Shown: positions 3,359-27,309 of the stretch, in pieces
Position numbering within the stretch: position 1 is the first letter of the stretch
How the letters are laid out: each line of letters begins with the position of its first letter
NCBI GenBank assembly: GCA_051892935.1
Contig: JBJFGS010000011.1
Span: 1-64,000, forward strand
Source: Candidatus Coprovivens sp.
GTDB taxonomy: Bacteria > Bacillota_I > Bacilli_A > RF39 > UBA660
Direction of reading: 5' to 3'
Length of the DNA stretch: 64,000 bases
Program-made: the position numbers and the translations under genes
Notes under the pieces: model-generated
The model's input: only the letters and a program-made list of their open reading frames with translations
Databases searched by the model: none
Told to the model about the DNA's origin: nothing

Positions 3359-6300
3359 CTATTTTATATATCTTATTAATAAGATAACAAATATAACAGA
3401 AAGAATAATAAAAATAATTATGAATACGACAATAAAACAAATTTTTTCAAAATCAAATTTTGCTTTAACATAACTCTTATTATCTTCATTTACTTCAAAA
3501 TCATTTACTAATTCCAAAGGTTTTGAAATTACATTAACAAAAAAACTAGTTGTAATTCCTCCATACGAAACAAAAACTTCATTTTTACCTTCTGTATTAA
3601 AAGTAGTTCCATTAACAATATTAATATCATATCCAGAGGAAATAACTTCTCTAGTACTATCCTGGTAAGTAACAATCAAAACTACAGAATTACTATCTAA
3701 AACATCTCCAACATAATATTGATCTTTTAATAAAGCTTCATTAACTTCAATATCTATTATTTCAGAAACATTTATATTAAAAGACACCTGCTTATTATTA
3801 TAAAAAACTACAACATCTATATTTCCACAATCACTTAAAACATTTCCTTCTTCTATAGATGTTGTATACCCAGAAGTAATATCAATTCTATTATTATATA
3901 AATCTATATACTGTAAACGAAGACCATCTAAAGAAAAAGTTTCACCAACTAAATAATTTACTTTTAAAGGATTTGAAATAATAATAAGACTATCATTTTT
4001 TATATCAACAACTTCTATATTAAACGAAGTTTTTACATTATTATAAGTAACATTAACAGTTTTAATTCCAACTTCATTTAATATTAAACCATCATCTAAA
4101 GAAAGTTCAAATCCATCTGTTACTTTTTCTACAAAACCAGAATTTTTATGATCTAAAATAATTAGTCCTTCACTCGAAAAAGAATCTCCCACATAATATG
4201 TTGTTCTATAAGGTAATTGATTAATTGTAATTGAAGAAGTCTTTACATCCTTAACCTCTACATCAAAAGAAACAGATTTTGAAGCAAAAGAAACAGTAAC
4301 TTTCTGATAACCAGAATTTTCAAATATAGTATTACTAACTATATATCCATCTGTTACATCCTTTATAGAACCATCATCATACATAGCACTTAAAACTAAA
4401 CCAGTCGTATCTAAAAAATCTCCTACATAATATGATGTTTTTTTGGGCAAGTTTTTAATACTTAAAGATTTAATCTCTGCTTTTAAAACATTAACTTCAA
4501 ACGATTTACTTTTTCCGCCATAAGTAACAACTACATTTTGTCTACCAGAAGTAGAAAAACTAGTAGGTGAAACTGAAAAACCAGATGAAACATCTTTAAC
4601 AACACCATTATTATATTCAACAGTTAAAATCATTCCACTTGTATTTATAGTATCTCCAATATAATAGTTTAATTTAGTCGGTTTATTCTTAATAGAAATT
4701 GATGAAACTTCTATCTTTTTAACCATTACAGAAAAAGAAGTTTTCTTATTATTATAAGCAACTGTAATATTTTGAGTACCAGCAGAAGATAAAGTTGTTG
4801 GAGAAATAGTATAACCACTACTTATTTCTTCGAAATTATTATCAGTATAAATAGCATTTAAAACTAAACCGCTTGTATTTACTTTATCTCCAACGAAATA
4901 AGTTAATTTATTAGGTTCTTTCTTTATTTCAATACTAGATAAATTAGCTTTCCAATTAGCAGTATAAACAAGATTACCAACAGTACCAGTCTTTATCTTT
5001 ACAGTTTTAGTAGGTGTTGAACCATTACTTCCAGTCCAACCAACAAATGTATAACCAGTTCTTGTTGGAGTACTCAAAGTTATAGTAGATGATGTAGATT
5101 TATAAGAAGTAACATTTGAAGTTGTTCCACCAAATAAATTATAAGTAATTTTATAAACAGAACTAGAAAGATTATGATAACGATATAGAAAAATAGCCAC
5201 CTCATTTTTCGTAATATCATCATTTGGTGAAAAAGAATTACTTGTACTCCCCTTTACAATTCCAACATTATATCCCCAAAGAACAGCTTTGTAAAAATAA
5301 TCACTTGATGAAACATCATTAAAAGGTAAAGTTCCTGATACAGAAGGCGTATTAGCTAAACGATAAAGCATCACTATAAATTGCCCCCTAGTACAATTAC
5401 TAGCTGGATTAAACTTTGTATCTCCAAAAATAATACCTTTTTTATAAGCCCATATAATACTATCCAAATCTCCACTATATTGTGTTGATCCTAAATCAGT
5501 AAAACCAATTGTATTTTTTATATAACTTTGATTATTAGCAATTTCAGAAGTCGTACTACTAATGGAAACCTTTTCTACATTACTATTCCATAAATTATTA
5601 TAATTCCATAAAGATTTTACTACATCAAATCTTGTAATCGTATTGTTAGGTTTAAAAGACGTTTGTGAAACCAAAGGAAGAACACCATTATTAATAGCCC
5701 ACGCATCTATAGTAGTATTACTGCTAATATCACTAACATAACTAGCAAAAGAAGCATTAGCTATATGATAATCTTTAGCATATTTAGAAAAATAAATAGG
5801 TAAAGTATTAACAGAAGATGTACCTGATGTACTTTTAACGTTTTCATAAGTAACATTATAAGGTTTTAAACCACCAAAATCATAAGTATTTCCACCAGCA
5901 CTAGAATTAGCTACTACAAAACCATTTGATGAAGTAGCTAAATAATAATTGGGACTAAATCTTGCTTGGTGCTCAAAAAAGAAACCAAATTTTTTATTAT
6001 TATTAGCAATCGAATTAGAAATAATAATCGATTCATCATTTGAATATCCCGTTCCTATACCAAAGCCAGATGCTCCCTCTTGACTAGTTGTAGCAGCTTT
6101 TCCACAATTAATAGCTTGACAATTAGTAATAGTAGAATTAATTGGGCAATCAACACCAAATCCAGTAGCATCAACATTTTTAACAATAATATTATTCCAG
6201 TCACAATCCTTAAAAAGATTAATCATAAATCCTTTTCCAGTAGTATTATAAGTTCCACCTTTTACAGACGAACCATCAATAATAAAATCAGAAAAATCAG

Positions 6301-6904
6301 CATTAATAAGATAAACAGTTTGATTCTTTAAAGTTTGTACATTACCATTCATATCAATATAACTAACATTTTTTTTCGTCGAAGTAGTTACACTTCCATC
6401 ATTATTATAATTAGTATCAGCATAGTTATTAAAATAAAACATATCCATACTGCCTTTTCCACTAGAAGAATAAACTGGTTTTAAAATAGTCATCAAACTA
6501 CCACTAGTTCCAACACCTTTTATATGAACATTATTACGACATCTAATAGCATATGCTTCACCAGGATTTCCATGATTTGCAGTACCTCCCTGCGCAAAAT
6601 AAAAAGTACCGGCAGGTAAATAAACAATACCTCCACCGCTTTCTGATACTTTATCAATAGCTTTCTGCAAATTCTTTGTATTAGTCTGAGCACTAGTATT
6701 ATCACTTTTATTTGGAATCAAATCAACACCACTAACCAAAGTTACATCAATTTTACCACTTACAGCAGTTAAAGTAATTACTTCACTATTAGTAGAATTA
6801 CTATAAGTAAATGATTTAAAACTAAATATATTTATTAAAGAAAATAAAACAACAAATAACAAAAAATAATACTTTGTATTTTGACAAAATAATAACTTTC
6901 TCAT
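3359..6904 (-). CDS. multidomain surface protein: pectin-lyase-like beta-helix, SLH repeats, InlB B-repeat, about six Ig-like (Big_3-type) repeats, C-terminal TM
   Basis: LQKAID..GGGIVYLPAGTF (beta-helix cap); FKPNNTITR, FNPASNCTRGQ, FSPNDDITKNE (SLH); PTRTGYTFVGW (B-repeat); repeated PxKxxYxVGD..xxGL; hydrophobic tail. Start moved to ATG 6904. Confidence 0.8.
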   Translation of the reverse strand: MRKLLFCQNTKYYFLLFVVLFSLINIFSFKSFTYSNSTNSEVITLTAVSGKIDVTLVSGVDLIPNKSDNTSAQTNTKNLQKAIDKVSESGGGIVYLPAGTFYFAQGGTANHGNPGEAYAIRCRNNVHIKGVGTSGSLMTILKPVYSSSGKGSMDMFYFNNYADTNYNNDGSVTTSTKKNVSYIDMNGNVQTLKNQTVYLINADFSDFIIDGSSVKGGTYNTTGKGFMINLFKDCDWNNIIVKNVDATGFGVDCPINSTITNCQAINCGKAATTSQEGASGFGIGTGYSNDESIIISNSIANNNKKFGFFFEHQARFSPNYYLATSSNGFVVANSSAGGNTYDFGGLKPYNVTYENVKSTSGTSSVNTLPIYFSKYAKDYHIANASFASYVSDISSNTTIDAWAINNGVLPLVSQTSFKPNNTITRFDVVKSLWNYNNLWNSNVEKVSISSTTSEIANNQSYIKNTIGFTDLGSTQYSGDLDSIIWAYKKGIIFGDTKFNPASNCTRGQFIVMLYRLANTPSVSGTLPFNDVSSSDYFYKAVLWGYNVGIVKGSTSNSFSPNDDITKNEVAIFLYRYHNLSSSVYKITYNLFGGTTSNVTSYKSTSSTITLSTPTRTGYTFVGWTGSNGSTPTKTVKIKTGTVGNLVYTANWKANLSSIEIKKEPNKLTYFVGDKVNTSGLVLNAIYTDNNFEEISSGYTISPTTLSSAGTQNITVAYNNKKTSFSVMVKKIEVSSISIKNKPTKLNYYIGDTINTSGMILTVEYNNGVVKDVSSGFSVSPTSFSTSGRQNVVVTYGGKSKSFEVNVLKAEIKSLSIKNLPKKTSYYVGDFLDTTGLVLSAMYDDGSIKDVTDGYIVSNTIFENSGYQKVTVSFASKSVSFDVEVKDVKTSSITINQLPYRTTYYVGDSFSSEGLIILDHKNSGFVEKVTDGFELSLDDGLILNEVGIKTVNVTYNNVKTSFNIEVVDIKNDSLIIISNPLKVNYLVGETFSLDGLRLQYIDLYNNRIDITSGYTTSIEEGNVLSDCGNIDVVVFYNNKQVSFNINVSEIIDIEVNEALLKDQYYVGDVLDSNSVVLIVTYQDSTREVISSGYDINIVNGTTFNTEGKNEVFVSYGGITTSFFVNVISKPLELVNDFEVNEDNKSYVKAKFDFEKICFIVVFIIIFIILSVIFVILLIRYIK

Positions 6905-6992
6905 ACAAACACCTACTCTATAATAAAATATTATCACTAAATAATAAAAAAGCCAATGAACAAACATCAGCTTTTATCAATTTAACTAAAAA

Positions 6993-7795: not shown

Positions 7796-10700
7796 TTATT
7801 TCATATATTCAAGAATAGTATATTCATATCCAGTATCAGAATCTTTATAGAATGTAACTTCATAATTATATTCAACTTGTGAAGTAATATCTGGTTTAGC
7901 ATTAGTAGAACCAGTTATAATACCATCATAGTAATTAAAGTAACCCTTTTCTTTTTTAACTCCTATACCTTTAGTAGTACCTACAGCCGTAATACTAGGA
8001 TCGGTAATAGACACATTAGCTCTACTAGTACCATAAGTAGGATCACTTGGTTCTGTTTCAACACCTATAGTAACATTACCATCTTTCATATAAATACCAT
8101 AACTATTAGTAGCATTATTAGCTATTATACTTCCTGATTCCATTACAACCTTAGATGATGCATTATAATTATAAACACCATATGCTGTAGCAACATTATT
8201 AACTTTAATTGCACTATCAGATAAGAACACATTCCCTCCTTCATTAAATACACCAACATCTACGCCACTCGTTGTTAAATTTCCTATAGTTAACATTGTA
8301 TTATTAAGTTCTAAATTAGAATAATTATGAATAGAATGTGTTTCATAACTATAATTACTAGTTCTAGTAGTAATAATAGTACAATCATTAACAATCATAG
8401 TTCCACTATTACTAATCATCACCCATAGACTAGTCTTCGTAGTTGTACCACTAATATCCAATTCCGTAAAATTAATTGTTCCATAATTATAAATATAGCC
8501 TTCCACACTTCCTATACTATGAGATATTTTACCTAGAGAATTATTATTTGATAAAGTTCCTTTAATAATTACATTTTCCAAATTATAAACAGAAAGATTA
8601 GTATTGTATAAAGCAGTACCACTTGATATAACTGAAACATTTTTTACAACAGACTCTCTTACACCATTATCATATATTGCATATGTACTACCATTTATTG
8701 TTCCACTATCAATATTCATATTTCCTTTATTAGTAATAGCAGTATTAGTTGCATTAATATTTACATTATTTAAAAATAAATACCCTTCTAAATTATTTAC
8801 ACCATAAACAGAATCAATATTACTATTTTCAATATTTAAATTAGCATTAGCATTATTTTTAAATATATAATAACTACTAAATTGATCAAAATCTATACTA
8901 TTAATATACAAATTACCATTATTAACAAAAGAAGAATTTTCACCTGTTTTAATAATCTTAGATTGCTTCTCAGAAGTATTATTAATAGTAAGTCTTCCGT
9001 TATTGGTAAATATATGAGCACCAAGATTTAATATATAACCATCTAAATCAATTATTATATCCTTAGATAAATCAACTGAAATATTTTCATATATCTGAAC
9101 ATTATCTAAAAAGACTATTTTTTCACCATTATTTGCTTCAGAAATAGCATCAGTCAATTGTTTATATTTTACACCAGTAGTTTTATTCATAAATAAATCA
9201 GATACAGCACTTATATATGCAATTTCAAAAACATAATCATTAATGATTTCTGTTCCACTTGCTACCTTCATATCAGTTGGAATTGTAGTAATAGCACCTT
9301 TATAAGCATTAGTTTTTCCTTTTAAAATACCATCATAAAAATTTACTACTCCAGCATTAACATTTAATCCATAAGTTTCTCCAATAATAACTGGAACATC
9401 ATTTTTAATTGTTAAGTTATTTTCGCCAAGAGTCAAAGTATTAGTTGTTGAATTTGAATAAATTCCATTTGCTTCGCTAGATATTATTTCAGCATTATTA
9501 ATAGTTATCCTACTATATTCATCTAAATAAATACCAGTTTTTTGAGAATTTATAATAGTCTTGTTATCTGCATCTCCAATCTTAGCATTAACATAATAAA
9601 TAGATGAAGAAGTATAATAATATCCATCCAAATATACACCATAATTACCTGCAGTTAAAGTTCCACCTATAATATTTACTGACCTTGATGAACGATTATT
9701 TAAAGAACAATAAAAAGCATCAGTTTGAGAAATAATATCAGTATTTAATAAATTTACATTACTAAGAGAGGAATAGATTCCAGTTGAATCAGAAATTATA
9801 TTACTATCATCAGAAGCAATTGTACCATAGTAATGATAAATTCCTGTACCAGAAGAATTAATAGTCGTTTTATAAATATCAGATAAAACATTTGCATTAG
9901 TAGTATTTGAATAAATTCCATATGCATATTTCTTATAGCTATTACAATTAGTTGCATCACATGTACGAGTAGCAGTAACACTACTTTCACTCATATTAAG
10001 AGTTAAATTATTAAGAATGCCATATGCATAGTAACTTGAGTTAACAGAAGTATCAACTATTATGTTACTATTATTAACATTGAAAAGTCCAACATTATAT
10101 ATACCATAAGCATCATCACCTGTTGAAGAAACTTCTAAATCAGTATTGTTCATTTCAACAGTACCAGCATTATTATATATTCCATATGAAACTCCAGAAT
10201 ATTTGTTCTTTATAATACTATTATTTATTATTAGATTTGCATCAACACCACTATTACTAATTACATAATAATTAGTACTTGATTCATAGAATCCATTATC
10301 AATTATCATTTCAGAATAATTTTTAAAAATGTTTGATTTCGTATTAAAAATCTTACCAGTCTTTTCAGTACTGCTATCTTTAACAATTAATGTACCATTA
10401 TTAATAATACTCTGAGTAGTATTTAAAGTAAAACCATTCAAATCTAAAGTAATTATTTTATCATTCGGAATAGTTGCAGCTGAACCAACACTAGCAGTTT
10501 TTATAACTTTAATGGTTCCTTCACTTTCAATATTTCTTATGGCAATATCAAAAGAATTATATTCAACACCATCAACTTCCAAGAAAGCATCCTGTTCATC
10601 AATATATTTACATTCGTAGTCATAATCATCAATAGCTTTATAAATAGTTTTAATAACAGTAGCTTCAGGTATAGAAGTAACAGATCCCAAAAAAGCATTT

Positions 10701-13700
10701 ATTTTTCCACCAACAATACCATCATAAAAATTAAAAGTTCCAACATTAACATTGATACCATATGTATTTCCAAAAATTGATGGACTATCTTGTTCAACAC
10801 TTAAATTATTTTCACCAATTGTCAAAGTATTAGTTGTTGAATTTGAATAAATTCCATTTGCTTCGCTAGATATTATTTCAGCATTATTAATAGTTATCCT
10901 ACTATATTCATCTAAATAAATACCAGTTTTTTGAGAATTTATAATAGTCTTGTTATCTGCATCTCCAATCTTAGCATTAACATAATAAATAGATGAAGAA
11001 GTATAATAATATCCATCCAAATATACACCATAATTACCTGCAGTTAAAGTTCCACCTATAATATTTACTGACCTTGATGAACGATTATTTAAAGAACAAT
11101 AAAAAGCATCAGTTTGAGAAATAATATCAGTATTTAATAAATTTACATTACTAAGAGAGGAATAGATTCCAGTTGAATCAGAAATTATATTACTATCATC
11201 AGAAGCAATTGTACCATAGTAATGATAAATTCCTGTACCAGAAGAATTAATAGTCGTTTTATAAATATCAGATAAAACATTTGCATTAGTAGTATTTGAA
11301 TAAATTCCATATGCATATTTCTTATAGCTATTACAATTAGTTGCATCACATGTACGAGTTGATGTAATACTTCCACCATTCATATTAAAAGTCATTAAAT
11401 TAAATATTCCATATGAATAATGATTTGAATTAACAGATGTATCAACTAATATATTACTATTGTTAACATTAAAAAGACCAACATTATATATTCCATAAAC
11501 ATCATCACCTGTTGAGGTAACTTCTAAATCAGTATTATTTATTTCAACAGTACCAGCAGTATTATATATTCCATATGATACAGATGAAAAACTATTTTTC
11601 AATTTACTATTATTAATTGTAAGAATAGCATCAACACCGGTATTATAAAATATATATTTAGAAGATGCAGCTTCATATATACCATTTTCGATTGTCATAT
11701 TAGAATAATTATAAAATAAATTAGTTCTATTATTAAATATTTTTCCAGTCTGTTCTACACTACTATCTTTAACAATTAATGTACCATAATTAATAAATCT
11801 TTGTGAAGTATTTAAAGTATATCCATTTAAATCAACAGTAATATTTTTTTCTTTAGGAATTGTAATTGAAGAACCAACACTAACACTTTTAATAACCTTA
11901 ATTGTTCCCTCTTGTTCTATATCTCTTATTGCTAAATCAAAAGAATTATATTCTACACCATTTACTTCCAAAAAATTTTCTTGAGATTGAATAAATTTAC
12001 TTTCATATTCATAATTATCAATAACTTCATAATTTGTACTAACTATTGAAGCAGATGGTATAGCAGTTACTGAACCTTTTATAGCGTTAGTTTTACCTTT
12101 TATTAAACCATCATAAAAATTTAAAGAACCAGCGTTAACATTAACGCCATAAGTCTCACCCATAACAAGAGGACTTACTTGACTTATATTTAAATCGTTT
12201 TCTCCAATAGTTAAAGTATTAGTTTCAGCATATAAATAAACACCATTACTATTAGATGATTTAATATCAGCATTTAATATATTAGTGTTTGTATAATCAT
12301 TAAGATAAATGCCCGTACTATTTGAATTAATAACTGTCTTATTATCTTTATCTCCAATTTTAGCATTAACATAATAAACAGATGAAGAAGTATAATAATA
12401 TCCATCCAAATATACACCATAATTACCTGCAGTTAAAGTTCCACCTATAATATTTACTGACCTTGATGAACGATTATTTAAAGAACAATAAAAGGCATCA
12501 GTTTGGGAAGTAATATCAGTATTTAATAAATTTACATTGCTAAAAGAAGAATATATTCCAGAAGACCCAGATATTATATTACTTTCCTCAACATTGACTG
12601 TACCATAATAATGATAAATACCAGTACCAGAAGAATTTATTTTTGCTTTATTAAGACCAGTCAAAATGCTAGAATTTGACGAATTTGAATAAATCCCATA
12701 AGCATACTTCTGATAACTTGAACAATCAACATTATTAACACAAGTATGAGTTACTTTTATCTCCCCACCATTCATATTTAATACAGAAATATTTTGGATA
12801 CCATAAACATAAGCATAACCATTTTGTACAATCTCAACATCAATAATTCCACTATTAATAGTTAATGTTCCACTATTATAAACACCAGTAAGGCTTTCAG
12901 TTTTTGACATTTTAACATTAGCACCATCTATAACTAATGTTTTAGTATTATAAATACCTTCATAATTACCACTAGTTAATTTAGCTTCCTTACTAGAATT
13001 ATTATAAAACGCATAACTATTTGCCTTAAAATACGTATTTTCATCTGCATTAATCGTTCCATCATTATTATAAATTGCATAACCAGATTTAGCTTTTACA
13101 ACAGAATTAGTTGCATTAATTATTCCATTATTAGTTATAACATTAATAGTATCATTAGTTTCAATTGTTGCATCATTAAGATTTAATATACCATTATTTA
13201 CTACTGTTATAGCAGGAATTATTCTGCCTTTTTCATCACTAGTATCACGTATTATAAATGTACCATTATTTTTAACATCAGTACCTGTCGTAATATTATA
13301 ACCATTAATATCAAAGACAATAGTAACATTCTTATCAATTGTAAGTTTATAAGCAGCTTCAAAATCTCTTACAGCATAAATATCAAAACCAGAATACTTA
13401 GCAGTATTAATAGAATCTTGTAAATTAAAATAATAAATTTCTCCATTAACAATAGTTTTAGAAACAGCTCTATCAATATTATTTTGACTAATTAAATAAG
13501 CTTTTTGACAATCTTTTTCGCCATTATGATCAACAAACGTTGCATAATCAACAGGAGTAGCATGAACACTACCATTAATAGTTACATCACCTTCAATATA
13601 ACCATCATAAAAATAGAAAGTACCATACTGTTCAATACCAACAGTAGTACCAATTATAGCAACACTATCTTGAGAAACATTTGGCTTAGCATCATCGTTT

Positions 13701-15199
13701 TTATCATTTACACCTAAAGTTAATATACCTGTATTAGAAACAGCTATCCCATTAGTATTTTCAATAATACCATTATCAATTACAATATCACCTTTATTTA
13801 CTAACTTACCAACTACTTTATGTCCATTTAAATCTAATTTAACTTTCTTTTCATTAGTAAAAGACTCATCAACATCCTTTAAAACAACAACAGTTTGTCC
13901 ATCTTTTACTTCAACTAAAGCCCTTTGAATTGTTTGATAGTACCTATTACTCTCAGGAATTTTAGCTACAATATCTTCTTCTCTTATCCATTCTGCTGAA
14001 ACTTCAATATCCTTTTTACCCATAGTTACAACATCATCTTTTAAATAGCCTTCATCTTCATTTTCATTCCAAGCCACAAACAAGTAAGAAGTCCTAACAG
14101 GATCTTTTAATTCATATCTTTCTCCTTCATGTAATCTAACTTCAAAAGTACTTTCATTTTCGTATAATCCACCATTAGGATTAATAGTTAAAGCATAAGT
14201 AGGATGTTCTTTCCACACCGCTTCCAATCTAATATCTTCAACTACAGAAATAGTACTTTCCATATATTGAATTTCATCATTATATGTCCAATATTTAAAA
14301 TCAAAGTATTCCCTATATACATCACTTAAATCAATCTTAGTATTGTATAAAACTAATGCTTTATAAGGCACATCTACACCATTAAATAAACCACCATTAG
14401 GATCTATTTCAATAGTATATGTCTTATTAGGTATTTTACCAAAATTAATTAATCCTGTAATAGTTAGTGAATCTTGTTCCACAACCTCATCAGCAAATAC
14501 GCAATTAAATAAAGTCGTACCTAATATAAATAAAATTATAATAATTGTTTTTTTGTTTTTTTTCTTTACAAAATATAATAATAGTATTCCAGAAATTAAA
14601 AGAGCAAAGAATATAACTACATCTGAATAAGTGTTAGGATTCTTCACATCTTCCTCTCTATCAGTATCATTACCATTTTCATTTGAATTATTGCCATTAT
14701 TACCAGAGTTATTATTACCTGAATTAGGGTTGTTTGGAGAATTTGAACTACTTCCACCACCATTTATTTCTCCACCAGAAATAAGATTAGTTTTACTATA
14801 TTTTAATTCTAATTGAAAATTATTTGTATCATTAAGTTCTCCAATATCATTAGATTTTATAGTAAGTAACATTATTCTACTACTATTAGCTTCTATAATA
14901 TTATCTACTTCTAAACTACTATAAGAGTATTCCAAATATTCAACATCTGGATTACTTAAATTGATTTCATCTATTTTTACATTAGTATCACTAGTATTTT
15001 GGATAGTAACATAATATGAAATCTCTTGTTCTTTATCTGTTAATGTTAAATTAAAATCTTCCACTCCTGAAGGATTATTAACTAATATTTGTTGACTAGT
15101 ATCATAATTAGGAACTACACTTTTTAAAATTAATTCATTTTCTGCACTAACCAAAAATGGTATAAACAATAAAAATAAAAATAATATAAACTTTTTCAT
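7796..15199 (-). CDS. giant (2467 aa) surface adhesin-like protein with InlB B-repeats, beta-helix repeats and an internal sorting signal followed by a second signal peptide
   Basis: Signal peptide ending VSA; NPNTYSD-TM-KKKNKK-hydrophobic-VFA at aa ~187-236; IDPNGG...W repeats; YGIYN/NFYDG beta-helix repeats; no C-terminal anchor. Confidence 0.8.
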   Translation of the reverse strand: MKKFILFLFLLFIPFLVSAENELILKSVVPNYDTSQQILVNNPSGVEDFNLTLTDKEQEISYYVTIQNTSDTNVKIDEINLSNPDVEYLEYSYSSLEVDNIIEANSSRIMLLTIKSNDIGELNDTNNFQLELKYSKTNLISGGEINGGGSSSNSPNNPNSGNNNSGNNGNNSNENGNDTDREEDVKNPNTYSDVVIFFALLISGILLLYFVKKKNKKTIIIILFILGTTLFNCVFADEVVEQDSLTITGLINFGKIPNKTYTIEIDPNGGLFNGVDVPYKALVLYNTKIDLSDVYREYFDFKYWTYNDEIQYMESTISVVEDIRLEAVWKEHPTYALTINPNGGLYENESTFEVRLHEGERYELKDPVRTSYLFVAWNENEDEGYLKDDVVTMGKKDIEVSAEWIREEDIVAKIPESNRYYQTIQRALVEVKDGQTVVVLKDVDESFTNEKKVKLDLNGHKVVGKLVNKGDIVIDNGIIENTNGIAVSNTGILTLGVNDKNDDAKPNVSQDSVAIIGTTVGIEQYGTFYFYDGYIEGDVTINGSVHATPVDYATFVDHNGEKDCQKAYLISQNNIDRAVSKTIVNGEIYYFNLQDSINTAKYSGFDIYAVRDFEAAYKLTIDKNVTIVFDINGYNITTGTDVKNNGTFIIRDTSDEKGRIIPAITVVNNGILNLNDATIETNDTINVITNNGIINATNSVVKAKSGYAIYNNDGTINADENTYFKANSYAFYNNSSKEAKLTSGNYEGIYNTKTLVIDGANVKMSKTESLTGVYNSGTLTINSGIIDVEIVQNGYAYVYGIQNISVLNMNGGEIKVTHTCVNNVDCSSYQKYAYGIYSNSSNSSILTGLNKAKINSSGTGIYHYYGTVNVEESNIISGSSGIYSSFSNVNLLNTDITSQTDAFYCSLNNRSSRSVNIIGGTLTAGNYGVYLDGYYYTSSSVYYVNAKIGDKDNKTVINSNSTGIYLNDYTNTNILNADIKSSNSNGVYLYAETNTLTIGENDLNISQVSPLVMGETYGVNVNAGSLNFYDGLIKGKTNAIKGSVTAIPSASIVSTNYEVIDNYEYESKFIQSQENFLEVNGVEYNSFDLAIRDIEQEGTIKVIKSVSVGSSITIPKEKNITVDLNGYTLNTSQRFINYGTLIVKDSSVEQTGKIFNNRTNLFYNYSNMTIENGIYEAASSKYIFYNTGVDAILTINNSKLKNSFSSVSYGIYNTAGTVEINNTDLEVTSTGDDVYGIYNVGLFNVNNSNILVDTSVNSNHYSYGIFNLMTFNMNGGSITSTRTCDATNCNSYKKYAYGIYSNTTNANVLSDIYKTTINSSGTGIYHYYGTIASDDSNIISDSTGIYSSLSNVNLLNTDIISQTDAFYCSLNNRSSRSVNIIGGTLTAGNYGVYLDGYYYTSSSIYYVNAKIGDADNKTIINSQKTGIYLDEYSRITINNAEIISSEANGIYSNSTTNTLTIGENNLSVEQDSPSIFGNTYGINVNVGTFNFYDGIVGGKINAFLGSVTSIPEATVIKTIYKAIDDYDYECKYIDEQDAFLEVDGVEYNSFDIAIRNIESEGTIKVIKTASVGSAATIPNDKIITLDLNGFTLNTTQSIINNGTLIVKDSSTEKTGKIFNTKSNIFKNYSEMIIDNGFYESSTNYYVISNSGVDANLIINNSIIKNKYSGVSYGIYNNAGTVEMNNTDLEVSSTGDDAYGIYNVGLFNVNNSNIIVDTSVNSSYYAYGILNNLTLNMSESSVTATRTCDATNCNSYKKYAYGIYSNTTNANVLSDIYKTTINSSGTGIYHYYGTIASDDSNIISDSTGIYSSLSNVNLLNTDIISQTDAFYCSLNNRSSRSVNIIGGTLTAGNYGVYLDGYYYTSSSIYYVNAKIGDADNKTIINSQKTGIYLDEYSRITINNAEIISSEANGIYSNSTTNTLTLGENNLTIKNDVPVIIGETYGLNVNAGVVNFYDGILKGKTNAYKGAITTIPTDMKVASGTEIINDYVFEIAYISAVSDLFMNKTTGVKYKQLTDAISEANNGEKIVFLDNVQIYENISVDLSKDIIIDLDGYILNLGAHIFTNNGRLTINNTSEKQSKIIKTGENSSFVNNGNLYINSIDFDQFSSYYIFKNNANANLNIENSNIDSVYGVNNLEGYLFLNNVNINATNTAITNKGNMNIDSGTINGSTYAIYDNGVRESVVKNVSVISSGTALYNTNLSVYNLENVIIKGTLSNNNSLGKISHSIGSVEGYIYNYGTINFTELDISGTTTKTSLWVMISNSGTMIVNDCTIITTRTSNYSYETHSIHNYSNLELNNTMLTIGNLTTSGVDVGVFNEGGNVFLSDSAIKVNNVATAYGVYNYNASSKVVMESGSIIANNATNSYGIYMKDGNVTIGVETEPSDPTYGTSRANVSITDPSITAVGTTKGIGVKKEKGYFNYYDGIITGSTNAKPDITSQVEYNYEVTFYKDSDTGYEYTILEYMK
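9432..12540. repeat. intragenic tandem repeat, period 1389 bp (463 aa), about 3 units
   Basis: 9432-9970 reads identical to 10821-11359; a near-identical block recurs at ~12351-12538 at the same 1389-bp offset (FYCSLNNRSSRSVNIIGGTLTAGNYGVYLDGYYYTSSS occurs three times). Confidence 0.9.
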
Positions 15200-15287: not shown

Positions 15288-15806
15288 CTATTCAACATTT
15301 CCTATCTTAGTAAATGGGAATAAAACTAAACTAGTTACACCTTTAATTTGTGTTTCTTTCATAGGGCCTAACTCTTCACTATCTAAAGAATCTTCTCTAT
15401 TGTCTCCTAAAACAAAATATTCATCATCTGCTAATGTTATTTTTTCAATATTTCCAGTAATACCAATACTATAACTTTCATCTTGTCTTTTACCATTAAC
15501 ATAAATAACTCCATTCTCACAAGAAATAGTTTCTCCTGGTAAAGCAATTACTCTTTTTATAATATCTTCTGTTTTTATATCAACTACTACAATATCGAAT
15601 CTATTTATTTTAGATGTCTTATTAAGAATCATTATTTCTCCACCATCTAATGTAGGTTTCATAGATTGTCCACTAACCATAATTGGCGTAAATAAATAAG
15701 TTCTAATCAAAACTACAACAATCAAAATAATTACATATGGTACTAATTCTTTAATTACTTTTAATAAAGTATTCTTATTATTTTTTTCTTCCATTTCATC
15801 CACCAC
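15288..15806 (-). CDS. lepB: signal peptidase I
   Basis: VSGQSMKPTL (Ser), IKRVIALPGE (Lys), GDNREDSLDS; downstream of rplS. True start may be 15794. Confidence 0.93.
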   Translation of the reverse strand: MVDEMEEKNNKNTLLKVIKELVPYVIILIVVVLIRTYLFTPIMVSGQSMKPTLDGGEIMILNKTSKINRFDIVVVDIKTEDIIKRVIALPGETISCENGVIYVNGKRQDESYSIGITGNIEKITLADDEYFVLGDNREDSLDSEELGPMKETQIKGVTSLVLFPFTKIGNVE

Positions 15807-17482: not shown

Positions 17483-18151
17483 CTAATCTAATAAATCAGG
17501 TCTTCTCTCTTGCGTTCTTTTTAATCTCATTTCATTTCGCCAAGCTTTTATATTTTCATGGTTACCGCTTATTAATACATCTGGGACTTTCATTCCCATA
17601 AATTCTTGTGGTTTTGTATAAGTAGGATAATCAAGAAGTTTATCATTAAAAGATTCACTATCTAAACTAGTATTAGTAATTACCCCATCTAATAATCTAA
17701 TTATGCTATCACTTATAACCATTGCAGGCAACTCTCCACCCGTTAAAACATAATCACCAATACTTATTTCCATATCACAAAGAGTTCTTATCCTTTCATC
17801 AAACCCCTCATAATGACCACAAACAAATATTAAATGTTTTCCTTTACTAAGCTCAACTGCCATATTTTGTTTATATTGTACACCATCTGGTGTCATAAGA
17901 ATTACTTTTGCATCAGGACTATCCTTCTTAGCATCCATAATAGCATCATACAATGGTTCTATACGTAAAACCATTCCTCCTCCCCCTCCATAAGGAGTAT
18001 CATCAACTTGATTATTATTTAACTTAGAATACTTTCTAAAATCTATAACATTTATTGAAACTAATCCCTTATTAATTGCTCTTTTTATAATAGATTCATT
18101 AATAAAGCCCTCAAACATATTAGGAAATAAAGTTAATATATCTATTTTCAT
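17483..18151 (-). CDS. trmD: tRNA (guanine-N1)-methyltransferase
   Basis: VDDTPYGGGGGM, CGHYEGFDER, SIGDYVLTGGE. Confidence 0.97.
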   Translation of the reverse strand: MKIDILTLFPNMFEGFINESIIKRAINKGLVSINVIDFRKYSKLNNNQVDDTPYGGGGGMVLRIEPLYDAIMDAKKDSPDAKVILMTPDGVQYKQNMAVELSKGKHLIFVCGHYEGFDERIRTLCDMEISIGDYVLTGGELPAMVISDSIIRLLDGVITNTSLDSESFNDKLLDYPTYTKPQEFMGMKVPDVLISGNHENIKAWRNEMRLKRTQERRPDLLD

Positions 18152-18639
18152 AATATCAATCCCTTAGCATTTTCAGTTTCGATAACTTTCTTTTCTAAAT
18201 CAACCATTTTTATGAAATTGCCATTTTTTGGAATATAAAAATTATTTTCACCCGAAATACATAATAATATATTAATTCCATTATACACAATTTTTGAAAC
18301 TTTACCAAGTATTTCACCATTTTCTATAATAGATAATCCAACTAAATCATCAAGTAAATACTCATCTTTTGTTAACATTAAATCTTCTCTTTTTACATAT
18401 ACATTTAATTTAACATAATTTAGAACTTGATTAATATTATCATAGCCTTCAAAAGTAACCATATCAAATTCTTTGTGAACTCTATATGAAGTTATTTTTT
18501 CTGGAACATGTCCTTCTCCAATATATAAAGTAAAACCTGGCTTAAAGACAACATTTTTTTTATCAAAATTACTTTTTATTCTAAGTTCACCTTTAATACC
18601 ATGAGTATTAACAATTTTTCCAATATAAACAAAATCCAT
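18148..18639 (-). CDS. rimM: ribosome maturation factor RimM
   Basis: IGKIVNTHGIKGE; ATGA overlap with trmD. Confidence 0.95.
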   Translation of the reverse strand: MDFVYIGKIVNTHGIKGELRIKSNFDKKNVVFKPGFTLYIGEGHVPEKITSYRVHKEFDMVTFEGYDNINQVLNYVKLNVYVKREDLMLTKDEYLLDDLVGLSIIENGEILGKVSKIVYNGINILLCISGENNFYIPKNGNFIKMVDLEKKVIETENAKGLIL

Positions 18640-22386: not shown

Positions 22387-22421
22387 AAAAAAAGATGTCA
22401 ACCTTTTTGGGTTAACATCTT
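22387..22421 (-). terminator. rho-independent terminator
   Basis: AAGATGTTAACC-CAAAA-AGGTTGACATCTT followed by a T run, directly after the DUF285 gene stop. Confidence 0.7.
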
Positions 22422-24644
22422 ATTCTTTAATTAATACAACACAATCAGGAGCTTGTTTTTCTATAAATGCTTTAGCCTTTTCATCTTTTACATAGATTGT
22501 AGAACCACTTATGCCCTTAAACATGTCAGTAACATCAGCTTCTTCATTCCAATCGCTTCCACTTAAATCGAATACCGAAGGATAAACTTTACCATCAGTT
22601 GTAGAAAACATTAAAGAATAGTTAATAGAAGTACCAAAATTAACGCCAGATAAATCAAGTTCATTAACATAATTATAGTTAAACATACCTCTAGAATTTT
22701 GCAAACTACTTAAATTCCAATTTTTTAGATTTAGTTTAGCAGAAAATAATGAAAACATACCAGTAGCTTTTTCTAACTTTTCAACATTCCAATTAGATAA
22801 ATCTAATTCTTCAATTGGATTAGTAATATTTTTTGAAGGGACTAACGAACCAAACATATAATTTGCAGACGAAAGATTAGATGTATCCCAATAATATATA
22901 TCACTTAAATCAGAAACACCAACTCCCCGAAACATAGAATCCATGTTTATTGCTGAACTAGTATCAAAATCATCTAAACCAATAATTGTTTTAACCCTAC
23001 TATTTCCAATAAACATATTATCAAAATATTCAACATTCTGAGTATCTAAACCAGTAAGATCAATAGTAGTTATATTAGGATATTCATACAATAAACCAAA
23101 TATACTATGATAAAACATCCCTGTCATTCTTTTTACATTACTAGTATCCCAGTCTTTAAAATAATCAATAGTAACTTCAACTGGTGAAAGATATCTAAAA
23201 AAAGCAAACATACGTGTCATATCTTCTACCTTAGAAGTATCAAAATCATATATATCTAAATTTAATTCTCTAGAATTAGAACCAAAATATAGAAACATCG
23301 AACTCATATTAGTTACATTACTAGTATCAAAATTAGACAAATCCAAATTAATAGTTTCTGAAAAATAACCGGCTTCCCAAAACATAAAAGACATATCTGT
23401 AACATTACTTGTATCAAACATCGATAAATCTAGTTCTAAGTCTTCAGTATATTCAGCAAAACCAGCAAACATGCCACGCATACTTGTAACATTGCTCGTT
23501 TCAAACCCAGATAAATCATATTTAATCATATCTACTTGATTTCCAATACCAGTTAACATATATTCCATGTTTGTTGTTTTATTAGAAAAAAACTTTGACA
23601 TATCTAAATACTTAATGTTAAAAAAATCATTATCACTATTATTATCTTCTGCATTATAAGATGAAAATTGATAAGATGCATCTTTTGGGACAACTACACC
23701 ACCATCTTGACCAATTAAAAATAAATAACTTTCTTCTTCAGTATCTGCTAAATAAACACCTAATATAACATCACCATTTTGTTGTTCAGAAACATCATAA
23801 GTATTCTGTAGAGAAAAAGAAACATCATCAATTAAATAAGTATCACTAAGTTCCTTATAATCTTCCATAACTAAATAATGAACAAAATCCCTATCACCAT
23901 ATAATTTCCAATCGATACAAAAATCACCATCATAATCTAAATTAGCACAACTAGGAGCTAAATTAGATAGAATATAAGAAATATCAGTAGTAATATCAAT
24001 ATGTTGAACATCACTAGCTTTAACATGACTAAAATGAGAATAACCTAAAACTAAAAACAATAAAATAATCAAATATAATATTTTATTTTTTCTATATACA
24101 ATAATAAAAAGAAGAGAACATAAAATAAAAGCAATTACCACTAATACAATAATATCAAATGTATCAGGATTAATATAAGAAACATTTTCAAATAATAACT
24201 CTGCCTTAGCCTTTTCATTAAAATTTTCAATAGATAAAATATAATCAGGTTGATCAGCTTTAATAGAGTATAAAAAAGTAATAGTATCTCCTGGAGCAAT
24301 AATCTTATTCTTATCATAATTAAGTACTTCATACTTTAAATGATAATCATTATCTAACCCCTTAACATCAAAAAGCTTTTTATAATTATCCGAATCATTA
24401 GTAAGTGTAATTTGATACACTAAAGAAGCATCAGCATCATATATTACTCCTTCTGTAGAAATAATATTATCATTAATATCATTTTTTAATATTTTAGAAC
24501 CACCAGTACCACCTACAAATTCAACATCCTTTACAATAATGTCACTTTCTGCTTTTACCAACATAATTGGAATAAACAAAATAAAAGCTAAAAAACTAAA
24601 ACATTACTTTTAATAAGTTTAACACCATTATTCTTAAAATACAT
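22420..24644 (-). CDS. BspA/DUF285-repeat surface protein with an internal sorting signal and second signal peptide; 5' end frameshifted
   Basis: LSxFDTSNVTxMxxMF repeats; NPDTFD-TM-RKNK-hydrophobic-VKA. The RBS-preceded ATG at 24644 is 1 nt out of frame with the 22420..24579 ORF. Confidence 0.8.
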
Positions 24645-24716: not shown

Positions 24717-26015
24717 TTATAATACTTTTTTATTAGTAACATCAGAAATTAAAAATCCAGTTATCATAAAAAAGATTGGAGCAATAAACAATATTCTAAT
24801 ATTAAAAAAAGATTGAATTAAATAAGCACAAAACACAATAAAGAAAGAAACTAAAACATCATAATCATTATCAATTGATATTACTTTTTTTAAAGAAAGA
24901 ACAAATATCAAAAGCATAAATAACAAATATGTAGCAAAAGTAAATATACCTTCTGTAAACAGTATTTGAAAAAACTCGTTATGTGCTTTATAAACAGGAT
25001 TATCTCTACTAGGAGAATCATATATTAAAGTACCATAATTATAACCTAAATAAGCAAAATTATCTATTCCTATACCAGTATAAATATAATTAGAAAAATA
25101 CTTAAAAGCTTCTTTCCATATATATATTCTACCTGTCCCAAAAGAATTATCAATATTACCACTAAGAGTATTTTTTAATTCATATTTCAAATTTGAAACA
25201 TCATTACTATAATTATCATTAATTACTGATACTATATTAAATAGAATAAAAAATGAGACAAATAAAAATATAAATTTTTTACACACTAATCCCAAATTAA
25301 TTTTTTTTCTTCTAATAAAAAAACAATATAAAATCAACATAATAACTATCAATACTAAAGTCAATAAAGCTCCCATCGTTCCACATATTAGAATACCGAA
25401 CACAAACAAAAGAGTTAACAAAAAAGTTCCTTTATTATTTGTATTATCTAATAAATACTTTGGTAACCATAAACCAACCATAATAATCATATATGTTCCC
25501 ATAAAATCAGGATTAAATAAAAAACCAGAAGCTACACTCCATTTTCTTGTAACAGGAATACCAAAAACAAACTGACAATTAATAACTTGAAGAAAACCAT
25601 ACAAAACATTAAGAATTCCACAAATAGTTAAAATAATAAAAATAATATTTCTTAATTTATCTTTTTTAACCATTGTTGCCAGTAAAAAAAATGAATAATA
25701 AGAAAGTATCACAAACAAACCTTCTCTACTACCATAAAAGCCCTTCAAAGCTACCCTTTGATCAAAAGCATAATGGTACGATAAAAATAACAAAAAACTA
25801 AATAATAAGAAAAAAATGTTCCAAATTTTAAATTTATTGTATTTAATAGACAAAAAAATATAAAAAATTATAGCAATAATTCCAAAGATTTCTATAATAT
25901 AAGATACAAAATCCACACTAATAACAAAATAAGAGTATAGTATCGAACAAACATATAAAAAAATAATCAATAATATAAAAAATAAATTGATAATAAAACT
26001 ACAAATTTTCTCCAT
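24717..26015 (-). CDS. O-antigen ligase-like (Wzy_C) membrane protein
   Basis: Multi-TM; GFLFNPD, GTGRIYIW, TGIGIDNF, KAHNEFFQILFTEG. Confidence 0.85.
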   Translation of the reverse strand: MEKICSFIINLFFILLIIFLYVCSILYSYFVISVDFVSYIIEIFGIIAIIFYIFLSIKYNKFKIWNIFFLLFSFLLFLSYHYAFDQRVALKGFYGSREGLFVILSYYSFFLLATMVKKDKLRNIIFIILTICGILNVLYGFLQVINCQFVFGIPVTRKWSVASGFLFNPDFMGTYMIIMVGLWLPKYLLDNTNNKGTFLLTLLFVFGILICGTMGALLTLVLIVIMLILYCFFIRRKKINLGLVCKKFIFLFVSFFILFNIVSVINDNYSNDVSNLKYELKNTLSGNIDNSFGTGRIYIWKEAFKYFSNYIYTGIGIDNFAYLGYNYGTLIYDSPSRDNPVYKAHNEFFQILFTEGIFTFATYLLFMLLIFVLSLKKVISIDNDYDVLVSFFIVFCAYLIQSFFNIRILFIAPIFFMITGFLISDVTNKKVL

Positions 26016-26046
26016 AAAACCCTCTTAAAAAAAGCTCGTTAGAGCT

Positions 26047-27309
26047 TTAAAATTCAATTTTTTTCTTTTTTACAACAATAACTATTGAACCAATTAATAA
26101 TAATATAAACAGCATAACAGCAATATCTTCAGTTGAAGGATTTACTATGCTATTATCTTTTTCAGAAGGAACATCTTCTATTTCAGAATCCATCATAACA
26201 TCTGAATTACCTAATCCAACTAAATTATAATATAATTTATTTACATCATAAATATCATAACTTAAATAAGTAGGACATGTAAAATCATTAATATAAGAAG
26301 TATCACATATTCCATCAAAGTAACTCTTTAAGATATATAATTCTTTAGCATCCTTATCGAATAAAAAGTCTAAATATCTATAGTTTTGCTTGATTTCTTG
26401 AACTAAATTACCTTCTAAATCAAGTATTTCTATTTTATCATTATACAAACCAAGTTTAGTATCTATTTGCATTTCCTTAATTAAAATTATACAATCTCCA
26501 ACAAAATTTACTTTTTTTATTTTTTCATTTAAAGCATTTTTAATTTCAAATTCTAAGTTACCATCATAATAATATTGCAAAGAATTGTTATTATAAACCA
26601 CAAACTTTTTATCACTAACATCATACACCTTGAAAACTAAATTATTTTCAATTTTATAATCTAATTCAGGAAAATACTTTACAACATTCTCTTTATTACA
26701 ATCCATATATTCAACAGAAGTTTTATCTTCGGAAAGTTTAATCATATCACAAGAAAGATTATCATATGTTACATCAGAAGAAGATGAATTATTTAAAAAC
26801 AAAAAATAAGCATTCCCCTCAAACTCATTGAAATAATAATTATTATTATAATTAAAATAAAAAGAATAAACCTCATCTTTTAATAATTCTTTATCAAGTA
26901 TTATTTCAGAAACAACATCAAAATTATTATCATAAACGTTCAAAGAAAAAGCCTGTTTCTCAAAATAGCGACTACTATAGTGATAATTTGATATACCATA
27001 TATATATTCATCATTAACGAAAAAATAATGATCGTTAATTATAGTATTATCAAATTCACCATCACTTTTTTTATAACCAAGAAAAGAATGAATATCAGTA
27101 CGGTCATCAATATATCTAAAGCCAGTCAAAACACTATCATTAAAGTTAATTATTTTGCCTCCATTAGAAATAAGATAAGAAACAGGCTCATCATTAATAT
27201 CAATAGTTTCTTTTTTTATAAAAACATCCTTTCCATCAGCATACACAAAAGAAGAAAAAATAAAGAATAACGCAAAAAACAAAGACAACTTAAAGTACTT
27301 CACAAACAC
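26047..27309 (-). CDS. secreted protein with C-terminal NPSTED-TM-KKKK sorting signal
   Basis: Signal peptide ending VYA; C-terminus NPSTEDIAVMLFILLLIGSIVIVVKKKKIEF. Confidence 0.75.
   Translation of the reverse strand: MFVKYFKLSLFFALFFIFSSFVYADGKDVFIKKETIDINDEPVSYLISNGGKIINFNDSVLTGFRYIDDRTDIHSFLGYKKSDGEFDNTIINDHYFFVNDEYIYGISNYHYSSRYFEKQAFSLNVYDNNFDVVSEIILDKELLKDEVYSFYFNYNNNYYFNEFEGNAYFLFLNNSSSSDVTYDNLSCDMIKLSEDKTSVEYMDCNKENVVKYFPELDYKIENNLVFKVYDVSDKKFVVYNNNSLQYYYDGNLEFEIKNALNEKIKKVNFVGDCIILIKEMQIDTKLGLYNDKIEILDLEGNLVQEIKQNYRYLDFLFDKDAKELYILKSYFDGICDTSYINDFTCPTYLSYDIYDVNKLYYNLVGLGNSDVMMDSEIEDVPSEKDNSIVNPSTEDIAVMLFILLLIGSIVIVVKKKKIEF

Follow-up and report, generated by a model that had tools for sequence, protein, structure and literature searches.

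A stretch of 64,000 nucleotides (nt) from Candidatus Coprovivens sp. (assembly GCA_051892935.1, contig JBJFGS010000011.1, positions 1 to 64,000; hereafter the window) encodes on its minus strand a protein with DUF285 (BspA-like) leucine-rich repeats (LRR), the N-terminal part of which was found to be a widespread module. In this module a small domain, termed the base, is probably fixed to the cell wall, and the leucine-rich adhesin that follows in the same reading frame, termed the passenger, is probably held by one borrowed beta-strand. The original prediction had recognised the same arrangement, joined by a similar hinge, on a giant adhesin of the window, and had argued for a modular platform rather than chance fusions. 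Neither the DUF285 protein nor the other module proteins carry names in the source records. The features of the gene, and the module of the giant protein, are given below in window coordinates.

22420..24579, minus strand: main open reading frame (ORF) of 719 amino acids (aa), with a TTG start at 24579.
24591..24644, minus strand: 5' part of signal peptide 1 (MYFKNNGVKLIKSNVLVF), with an ATG at 24644, out of frame with the main ORF; intact in ortholog P0003.
24550..24579, minus strand: in-frame rest of signal peptide 1 (..FIPIMLVKA), with cleavage predicted between VKA and ESD.
24172..24549, minus strand: base, residues 11-136, a 126-aa immunoglobulin (Ig)-like beta-sandwich (AlphaFold 2 (AF2) model and hhalign), predicted to accept one more strand.
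24154..24171, minus strand: NPDTFD, residues 137-142, internal sorting motif of the class B sortase type (conservation, and C-terminal copies in the genome).
24094..24153, minus strand: transmembrane (TM) helix 1 (IIVLVVIAFILCSLLFIIVY), residues 143-162, stop-transfer segment of the sorting signal (sequence; AF2 helix 138-162).
24082..24093, minus strand: RKNK, cytoplasmic basic loop, which ends the sorting signal as its charged tail and opens signal peptide 2 as its n-region.
24016..24081, minus strand: TM helix 2, or signal peptide 2 (ILYLIILLFLVLGYSHFSHVKA), residues 167-188, with cleavage predicted between VKA and SD.
From 24015, minus strand: amphipathic strand beginning SDVQHIDITTDISY, directly after the second signal-like segment.
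23962..24015, minus strand: predicted donor strand (SDVQHIDITTDISYILSN), residues 189-206 (AF2 strand 191-202), nearly the whole interface in the complex prediction.
22420..23961, minus strand: passenger, a Cys-containing N-terminal region followed by DUF285/PARCEL leucine-rich repeats; stop codon at 22420..22422.
14444..15199, minus strand: the same module on a giant 2,467-aa protein (ORF 7796..15199; AF2 and alignment).

The reading frame can be read as two secretory units. The first would consist of a signal peptide, the Ig-like base and a full class B sorting signal (NPxT(G/x), TM helix, basic tail). The second would start in that same basic tail, acting as the n-region of signal peptide 2 (TM helix 2 and a V-x-A site), and would continue with a short amphipathic strand and the passenger. 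Given this double role of the basic loop, helices 1 and 2 would be expected to form a hairpin on insertion, which would leave both base and passenger on the outside of the cell. The strand after helix 2 would then enter the base, antiparallel to its last strand and parallel to strand 39-46, and complete the sandwich; signal peptidase would cleave after VKA; Sortase B (SrtB) would cleave the sorting motif between NPDT and F and join the base to peptidoglycan; and the membrane hairpin would be discarded. As a result, the N-terminus of the DUF285 adhesin would be held on the wall-anchored base by a non-covalent Ig fold made of two chains. This reading, with attachment of the base to the wall by sortase, release of the passenger N-terminus by signal peptidase and a tether provided by strand complementation, is considered the best one, and its chance of being correct is put at about even.

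The base, NPDTFD, the TM helix, RKNK, the second signal-like segment, the strand, the DUF285 passenger and the lack of a C-terminal anchor were all recovered as originally described. The exception is the first signal peptide, which had been read across a 1-nt frameshift. The passenger matched DUF285 (Pfam PF03382, E 2.3e-39, 134.3 bits against a cut-off of 25) and the PARCEL repeats (NCBIfam TIGR02167, 69 bits against a cut-off of 30). Its C-terminus (..APDCVVLIKE) has neither a TM segment or hydrophobic tail nor a sorting signal. Signal peptide 2 (residues 163-188), as read from the sequence rather than with a dedicated predictor, has the basic n-region RKNK, an h-region beginning ILYLIILLFLVLGY and then V-K-A.

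The ATG at 24644 opens a frame of 18 codons that is closed by a TAG (24590..24588), and the main frame is stopped upstream by a TAA (24606..24604); a run of six T (24590..24595) separates the two frames. In ortholog P0003 (87% identical) signal peptide 1 is unbroken (MYFKNNSIKLIKSNILVFLFFILFAPFVLAKA, followed by DSD), and orthologous signal peptides end in AKA before DSD, VCA before ESD or ANA before ASD. Public runs were compared over this stretch as contigs, and none shares more than 22% of its sampled words. The two related contigs that extend across the T run (from X3 and X4; about 92% identical) both had seven T, i.e. one extra base. A 36-base piece of run X1 that overlaps it was without the extra base, but has five mismatches and is too short to weigh. 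The frameshift in this copy is due either to mis-assembly or to a slip in the homopolymer that switches the gene off, which could possibly be slipped-strand phase variation.

In the giant protein the module starts with MKKFILFLFLLFIPFLVSA (predicted cleavage between VSA and EN), and continues with a base of 122 aa (residues 20-141) and a 45-aa linker rich in Asn, Gly and Ser, up to NPNTYSD. The NPNT (187-190) is followed by a TM helix, KKKNKK, signal peptide 2 (TIIIILFILGTTLFNCVFA, predicted cleavage between CVFA and DE) and a strand (243-252, ..SLTITGLINF). A third copy of the module was found elsewhere in the genome (G000:C29:3930-5276), in a protein of 448 aa with NPNT, a TM helix, SKYKE, a second TM helix and IIKA before IES. 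No Pfam family was found in the passenger of this third protein, and a Hint-like domain that had been suspected there was dropped for the same reason. The passengers of the three copies are unrelated.

The sequence patterns said to be shared by the base of the DUF285 protein and that of the giant adhesin are weak when the two are compared directly: BLASTP gave an E of 0.048, with 24% identity over 63 aa, and phmmer gave no mutual match (E ≤ 10). The comparison of profiles was significant. With hhalign, the base of the giant family matched that of the DUF285 family at 89.3% (E 2.1e-6, score 39.3), the DUF285 base (24 orthologs) matched the bases of other genomes at 94.2% (E 1.1e-7, score 46.4, 114 columns), and the giant base matched the latter at 96.2% (E 2.6e-9, score 53.4). 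Sixty column shuffles per query gave maximum scores of 26.9, 17.8 and 18.8, respectively. A hidden Markov model (HMM) of the 15 bases from other genomes found the third copy at 5e-22. At the level of sequence profiles, the DUF285 and giant bases are homologous. The order of elements also matches between their AF2 models. The DUF285 protein has eight strands between residues 14 and 133 (base at a predicted local distance difference test (pLDDT) of about 70-77), helices at 138-162 and 168-179, and a strand at 191-202 with a pLDDT of about 80 and flanks of low confidence (mean pLDDT 76.9). The giant module has seven strands between 23 and 137, helices at 191-213 and 216-234, and a strand at 243-252 (mean pLDDT 67.7).

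The hinge and the DUF285 repeats were kept in all 24 orthologs (proteins found with residues 1-190), with no variation at P138, T140, V186 or A188 and with N137 and D142 conserved in at least 90%. A three-sequence profile of the module was searched in 151 genomes of the family and gave matches in 37. Full-length matches were obtained for 15 proteins of six other genomes (ORFs of 333-2,511 aa, passengers of about 100-2,284 aa), two of which have an extra domain before the base. All 15 have NP.T or SPKT, a TM helix, a basic loop, a second helix ending in ..A and an amphipathic strand. The resulting 18 modules from seven genomes align along their whole length, and the N, P and T of the motif were recorded as invariant.

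A profile of these 18 modules was searched against 1.84 billion representatives of public protein clusters. It matched 2,898 of them at E ≤ 1e-3, 1,843 at E ≤ 1e-10 and 1,045 at E ≤ 1e-30. NPxT, a TM helix and a basic loop were present at the matching place in 146 of the best 150 of the 2,898 matches; NPKT (54) and NPNT (49) were among the variants, and Gly occupied position 5 in 92 of the 146. An alignment of 108 representatives showed invariant Y69, N75, Y120, N153, P154, T156 and A200 (the -1 Ala), with a Pro about five residues ahead of the second cleavage site in at least 90%. The passengers of these 108 were varied (DUF285 in 19, DUF6273 in 7, a few with LRR, Cna_B, Flg_new or MucBP, and most without a family), and no Pfam family covered the base in any of them (E ≤ 0.001).

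A stricter pattern located the whole hinge in 136 of the best 150 matches. The residue at -1 of the second site was A in 119, S in 12, C in 4 and G in 1, and that at -3 was V in 69, I in 37, T in 12 and L in 7, the others being S, A, G, M or C. The strand after this site alternates I/V/L at +6, +8, +12 and +14, with Ser at +10. A C-terminal TM segment with a basic tail was present in none of the 136, and therefore the module is their only visible anchor. The largest subgroup of representatives (P0030-P0178) starts L-C-K-C-E-I-K-I-E-S-N after the second site; Cys is found at +2 in 90 and at +4 in 54 of the 136 hinges, and this conserved pair on the donor strand is absent from the DUF285 and giant copies of the window.

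With the third copy in the genome, the 15 loci in six genomes and the hinge in 146 of the best 150 matches, the modular platform is strongly supported over chance fusions; the bases are related by profile and by their AF2 strand patterns, and the hinge is present in the homologues. The same counts bear on a possible artefact, in which a small sortase-anchored protein and a secreted DUF285 protein, encoded by neighbouring genes, were joined by an assembly or sequencing error. The assembly does have a 1-nt error or variant in signal peptide 1 of this very gene. An uninterrupted frame in 24 orthologs of independent assemblies, at the 15 loci and in the 146 matches nevertheless refutes the artefact, the probability of which is negligible.

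In a class-wide sample of 399 genomes, matches at E ≤ 1e-10 were found in 10, all of one family (9 of 49, plus the genome of the window), and none in the 349 genomes of 29 other families. These counts are a floor, as seven candidates were scored per genome. The named records with the module are metagenome-assembled genomes of uncultured Erysipelotrichaceae, Bacillales, Tenericutes, Bacilli or Clostridium. Decayed copies of the module or base, with 3 to 13 stop codons, were seen at G142:C16:5491-6084, G109:C23:11955-12572 and G092:C6:27555-28211. A sequence search of the PDB with the module profile gave one spurious TM match (E 0.82).

The sorting motif was examined in the context of the genome, in which 11 other proteins end in NPxT, a TM helix and a basic tail according to a pattern scan. 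A class B sortase is encoded as well (TIGR03064, E 3.9e-50, 170.4 bits against a cut-off of 153.75; 518 aa, G000:C10, L003:454-2010), as is a class C sortase with LPxTG pilins. NPxT(G/D) with a TM helix and a basic tail is therefore the ordinary sorting signal of this organism, and it is internal in three proteins of the genome. In the DUF285 protein the NPxTG-like motif NPDTFD is followed by the helix IIVLVVIAFILCSLLFIIVY and the basic RKNK. Two genes lie directly upstream of the DUF285 gene (24717..27309, minus strand), one for a 432-aa polytopic protein like Wzy_C/O-antigen ligases (PF04932, E 7e-16) and one (26047..27309) for a 420-aa secreted protein with no Pfam family. The latter ends in NPSTED, a TM segment and KKKK (..NPSTED..KKKKIEF), an ordinary C-terminal copy of the sorting signal. 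The class B sortase has an N-terminal extension of about 270 aa ahead of its TM helix, which seems conserved because many SrtB matches of the family sit in ORFs of 510-595 aa.

A serious rival to the proposed processing, if on balance an unlikely one, is that the hairpin is never cleaved. The two helices would stay in the membrane and tether two extracellular parts, the strand would be the last strand of the Ig fold, and NPxT and V-x-A would be kept for folding or insertion. Such a topology is self-consistent, the docking in cis seen with AF2 and ESMFold requires no cleavage, and a sorting signal that is not C-terminal is contrary to known sortase substrates. The conservation of the hinge is difficult to reconcile with it: the motif, identical to the C-terminal sorting signals of the genome, has invariant N, P and T and often a Gly at position 5, while the invariant -1 Ala, the small or aliphatic -3 residue and the upstream Pro are like those of cleaved signal peptides. 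Low-complexity linkers of 20-45 aa before NPxT, as found in the giant protein, L035 and L040 (L039 has a longer, Cys-containing one), would be pointless in a complex pinned to the membrane, and appear to fit a wall-linked base.

It is also conceivable, although quite improbable, that only one site is used. Signal peptidase might free the passenger while the base remains on helix 1, or sortase might move the base while the passenger remains on an uncleaved helix 2, in which case the strand would bridge membrane and wall. Conservation supports each site separately, and none of the tests links the two events. Both sites are, on the other hand, equally invariant in the 108 representatives, and a bridge from wall to membrane conflicts with the 0-3 residues that separate the V-x-A site from the strand, given a base on a 45-aa linker. 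The invariance of both sites and the linkers resembling wall spanners in some members argue for the processing of base and passenger proposed above.

The idea that the strand acts as a donor peptide was put to an in silico test, and the outcome supports it. The base (11-136) and the passenger (189-330) were modelled as a complex with ESMFold2, with custom ortholog alignments for both. The interface score (ipSAE) was 0.75 (runs 0.77, 0.75 and 0.71), and the best of three controls reached 0.12; the mark used for this score is reached by 58 of 80 solved complexes and by 2 of 110 mismatched pairs. Contacts agreed by at least 87% between runs, and the partner pLDDT was at least 76. On the partner side, the interface comprised residues 190-206 plus 270, 296 and 299. 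In the pairs with the least error the strand ran antiparallel to 122-130 (128-194, 126-196, 124-198, 122-200) and parallel to 39-45 (40-196, 41-197, 45-201), and these two registers would therefore place it between two strands of the base. The pLDDT of the base was 76-80 with the passenger as partner, compared with 59-67 with unrelated partners. An isolated confident strand right after helix 2 was also seen in the AF2 monomer models of both window proteins. The complex model thus supports binding of base and passenger, without showing it.

The predicted pairing brings the end of the last base strand next to the start of the donor strand, which might suit another outcome, in which signal peptidase first exposes Ser189 and sortase then resolves the acyl intermediate at Thr140 on its alpha-amine, joining base and passenger again in one soluble chain from which the hairpin is removed. 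Sortases take N-terminal amines in ligation chemistry. Such an excision by transpeptidation is nonetheless considered very improbable: no precedent was found in the literature searched, the product would be without any anchor although none of the 136 passengers has another, and the new N-termini would be S, L, I or D, whereas sortase nucleophiles typically have Gly or Ala.

Fold comparison of the giant module gave generic Ig/MSP/PapD-like matches at middling Z values (7.6-11.1), which show the fold class and not the function. The best match was 9i1y_A, a WxL-interacting protein of E. faecium (Z 11.1, root-mean-square deviation 2.6, 115 residues aligned), and chaperones of chaperone-usher systems were also matched (EcpB 5dfk, Z 8.9; YadV, FaeE, SafB). 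The aligned ranges of the module to Ig-like and PapD-like domains pass through the strand after the hinge. The whole 719-aa AF2 model was uninformative on the base as a query, as the list was filled by LRR proteins (VIA-align, Z up to 16.0 for 4fs7_A). A relation of the base to the TasA/CalY fold, which the original prediction had raised, was not established. TasA and CalY were not among the best 50 fold matches of either search with the giant module, a listing that does not exclude them. No Pfam family matched the base at E ≤ 1, including Peptidase_M73 (PF12389), for which the N-terminal domain of one relative gave an E of 0.18, and no CARDB or DUF11 match exceeded the gathering score. Leads from the ESM Atlas below 0.9 pointed to 'cell wall proteins' that combine Peptidase_M73 with LPXTG.

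Several points weigh against the proposed fixation and release. Both cleavages and the wall linkage are inferred. The sorting signal lacks the C-terminal position that is a defining feature of sortase substrates, and 553 residues follow its basic tail; the motif NPDTFD is also without the Gly at position 5 that is present in 92 of 146 members. All seven module-bearing genomes have SrtB; as nearly every genome of the family has it (129 of 151), this co-occurrence carries no information. The docking is a matter of model confidence, and an uncleaved Ig fold whose last loop holds a helical hairpin should dock just as well. The HMM of the 15 bases from other genomes reached the DUF285 protein only at a domain E of 0.025 (full E 1.3) and did not find the giant at E ≤ 10. 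Finally, the copy of the gene in the window may not be exported, since its signal peptide 1 is frameshifted in this assembly.

The profile of the base also matched many proteins of 165-200 aa, and the N-termini of proteins of 400-800 aa, in related genomes. The order of elements is reversed in these relatives, with a basic N-terminus, a TM helix, '(V)GYAAL', an alternating strand (L.I.G.A.V) and then the domain, and it is the helix 2 part of the module profile that aligns to their N-terminal helix. Three such genes are present in this genome, each next to a protein with a C-terminal NPxT signal, and two of the three adjoin genes for archaeal/SipW-type signal peptidases (TIGR02228, E 4e-22 and 5.6e-24) that carry a fused polytopic membrane domain, and have DUF5305 genes as further neighbours. 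The clusters G000:C31:31350-37108 and G000:C47:13756-17120 share one layout, which looks like a fibre-assembly operon: an NPxT-signal protein, a base-related pilin-like protein of 165-182 aa, a SipW-type peptidase of 373 or 386 aa with its membrane domain, and a DUF5305 protein. Just beyond the window, at G000:C11:64856-69557, an NPxT-signal protein, a 182-aa pilin-like protein and a 381-aa TM protein were seen, with no peptidase. The standalone subunits of 165-182 aa lie at G000:C11:66015-66560, C31:33164-33658 and C47:14423-14962. The standalone relatives mostly fell below family cut-offs (CARDB 16.5-22.3 against 22.7; DUF11 18.1-23.6 against 24.6); three were narrowly above one (CARDB 24.3 in L015 and 26.5 in L018; DUF7507 28.1 against 27 in L033), and one showed a trace of the SipW-dependent BsaA family (E 0.0082, below the cut-off).

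This suggests that the hinge proteins are a rearranged branch of a SipW-type fibre family, in which the acceptor domain moved before the helix and gained a sortase signal. As a tentative and rather unlikely extension, the module might be one end of a chaperone-free Gram-positive donor-strand pilus. It would consist of acceptor-only bases fixed by Sortase B, donor-plus-acceptor subunits of 165-200 aa processed by SipW and encoded beside the SipW-like peptidase and DUF5305 genes, and donor-only tip passengers, with base and tip born as one precursor from which the hairpin is excised by two different enzymes. If so, a natural split-protein tether would have arisen from a loop cut out of an Ig fold, and shaft subunits could insert between base and tip.

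Further features of the window were recorded around the giant gene. A bacterial-type signal peptidase I is encoded 88 bp upstream of it (15288..15806, minus strand). This was first taken for a dedicated SipW on a weak TIGR02228 match, and is an ordinary LepB (TIGR02227, E 7.7e-37); its adjacency to the giant gene may be incidental, because rimM and trmD lie slightly further upstream (17483..18639). A 1,202-aa protein (3359..6967, minus strand) has S-layer-homology (SLH) domains (E 2.5e-20), Big_3 and Listeria-Bacteroides repeats, and therefore S-layer-homology anchoring coexists with sortase anchoring in this lineage of small genomes.

Class B sortase substrates of the IsdC type carry NPxTG or NPQTN signals. 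The module resembles such substrates in having NPxT(G) followed by a TM helix and a basic tail, with a SrtB gene in the genome, and differs from them in that the signal of the DUF285 protein is internal, the frame continuing through another signal peptide and 531 more residues. No description of a sorting signal that continues in frame into another signal peptide was found in the main texts of the literature searched. Chaperone-usher pilins, and engineered self-complemented pilins, have an Ig fold without its last strand, completed by a strand antiparallel to the preceding one. The predicted strand geometry here is similar, and the donor likewise alternates hydrophobic residues with a small residue in the middle; by contrast, the module is Gram-positive, has no usher and no sequence relation shown, and its natural 'linker' would be a removable membrane hairpin. 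A signal of the NPKTG type is reported for the SrtB of Bacillus anthracis (PMC11987632).

Among described systems, the Elr/WxL pilus of Enterococcus faecalis comes nearest. It is reported to combine donor-strand complementation with sortase anchoring and to carry an LRR tip adhesin (Sleutel et al., bioRxiv 10.64898/2026.10.17.759780). As described there, it shares with the module the non-covalent complementation of an incomplete Ig-like fold together with sortase, an LRR adhesin as payload, and modular attachment with variable payloads. Its polarity is opposite: the strand comes from the LPxTG base ElrB and is accepted by the C-terminal WxL domain of the adhesin ElrA, whereas here the base would accept and the N-terminal strand of the adhesin would donate. 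The pilus is also described as made from five separate genes with a membrane chaperone and as using LPxTG and SrtA, whereas a single polypeptide here includes base and adhesin, with a TM hairpin between them, and the signal is NPxTG of class B. WxL, DUF916 and DUF3324 were not among the Pfam matches of the DUF285 protein (E ≤ 0.01) or of the 108 members (E ≤ 0.001), and the resemblance is limited to the structural one with 9i1y_A.

In the TasA/TapA/SipW fibres of Bacillus subtilis and in the SipW-dependent BsaA, a strand exposed by signal peptidase is reported to complete the beta-sandwich of a neighbour (PMC9674648, PMC10151520, PMC11580942). The module is akin to these fibres in that distant relatives of the base (165-200 aa; N-terminal TM helix, 'GYAAL', strand, domain) adjoin SipW-type peptidases. 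Unlike TasA, the base is without a donor strand of its own, has a sortase signal and gives no Peptidase_M73 match. The passenger is a member of the DUF285/PARCEL (BspA-like) surface proteins known from Mycoplasma and Listeria. The family model of the lipoprotein Mbov_0838 gave 79 bits against a cut-off of 500, and the anchoring of the DUF285 protein would be through its N-terminal module rather than a lipobox. Sortase anchoring and strand complementation are each already known, and the proposed excisable hairpin between the halves of a fold is without precedent in the literature searched.

If the proposed processing is true, it would provide the first sortase sorting signal that works inside a polypeptide, and the first wall anchor attached to the N-terminus of its cargo by a two-chain Ig fold instead of a covalent bond. 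A possible use is as a small, genetically encoded, self-assembling tether for surface display. The mirrored arrangement of the Elr/WxL pilus (late 2026) suggests that the combination of strand complementation with sortase anchoring arose more than once in Bacillota. For the Bacilli of the animal gut, the N-terminal 200-250 residues of at least 1,000 unannotated protein clusters would gain a function and a name, and the surface retention of the most common type of adhesin (DUF285/BspA-like) without another anchor would be explained.

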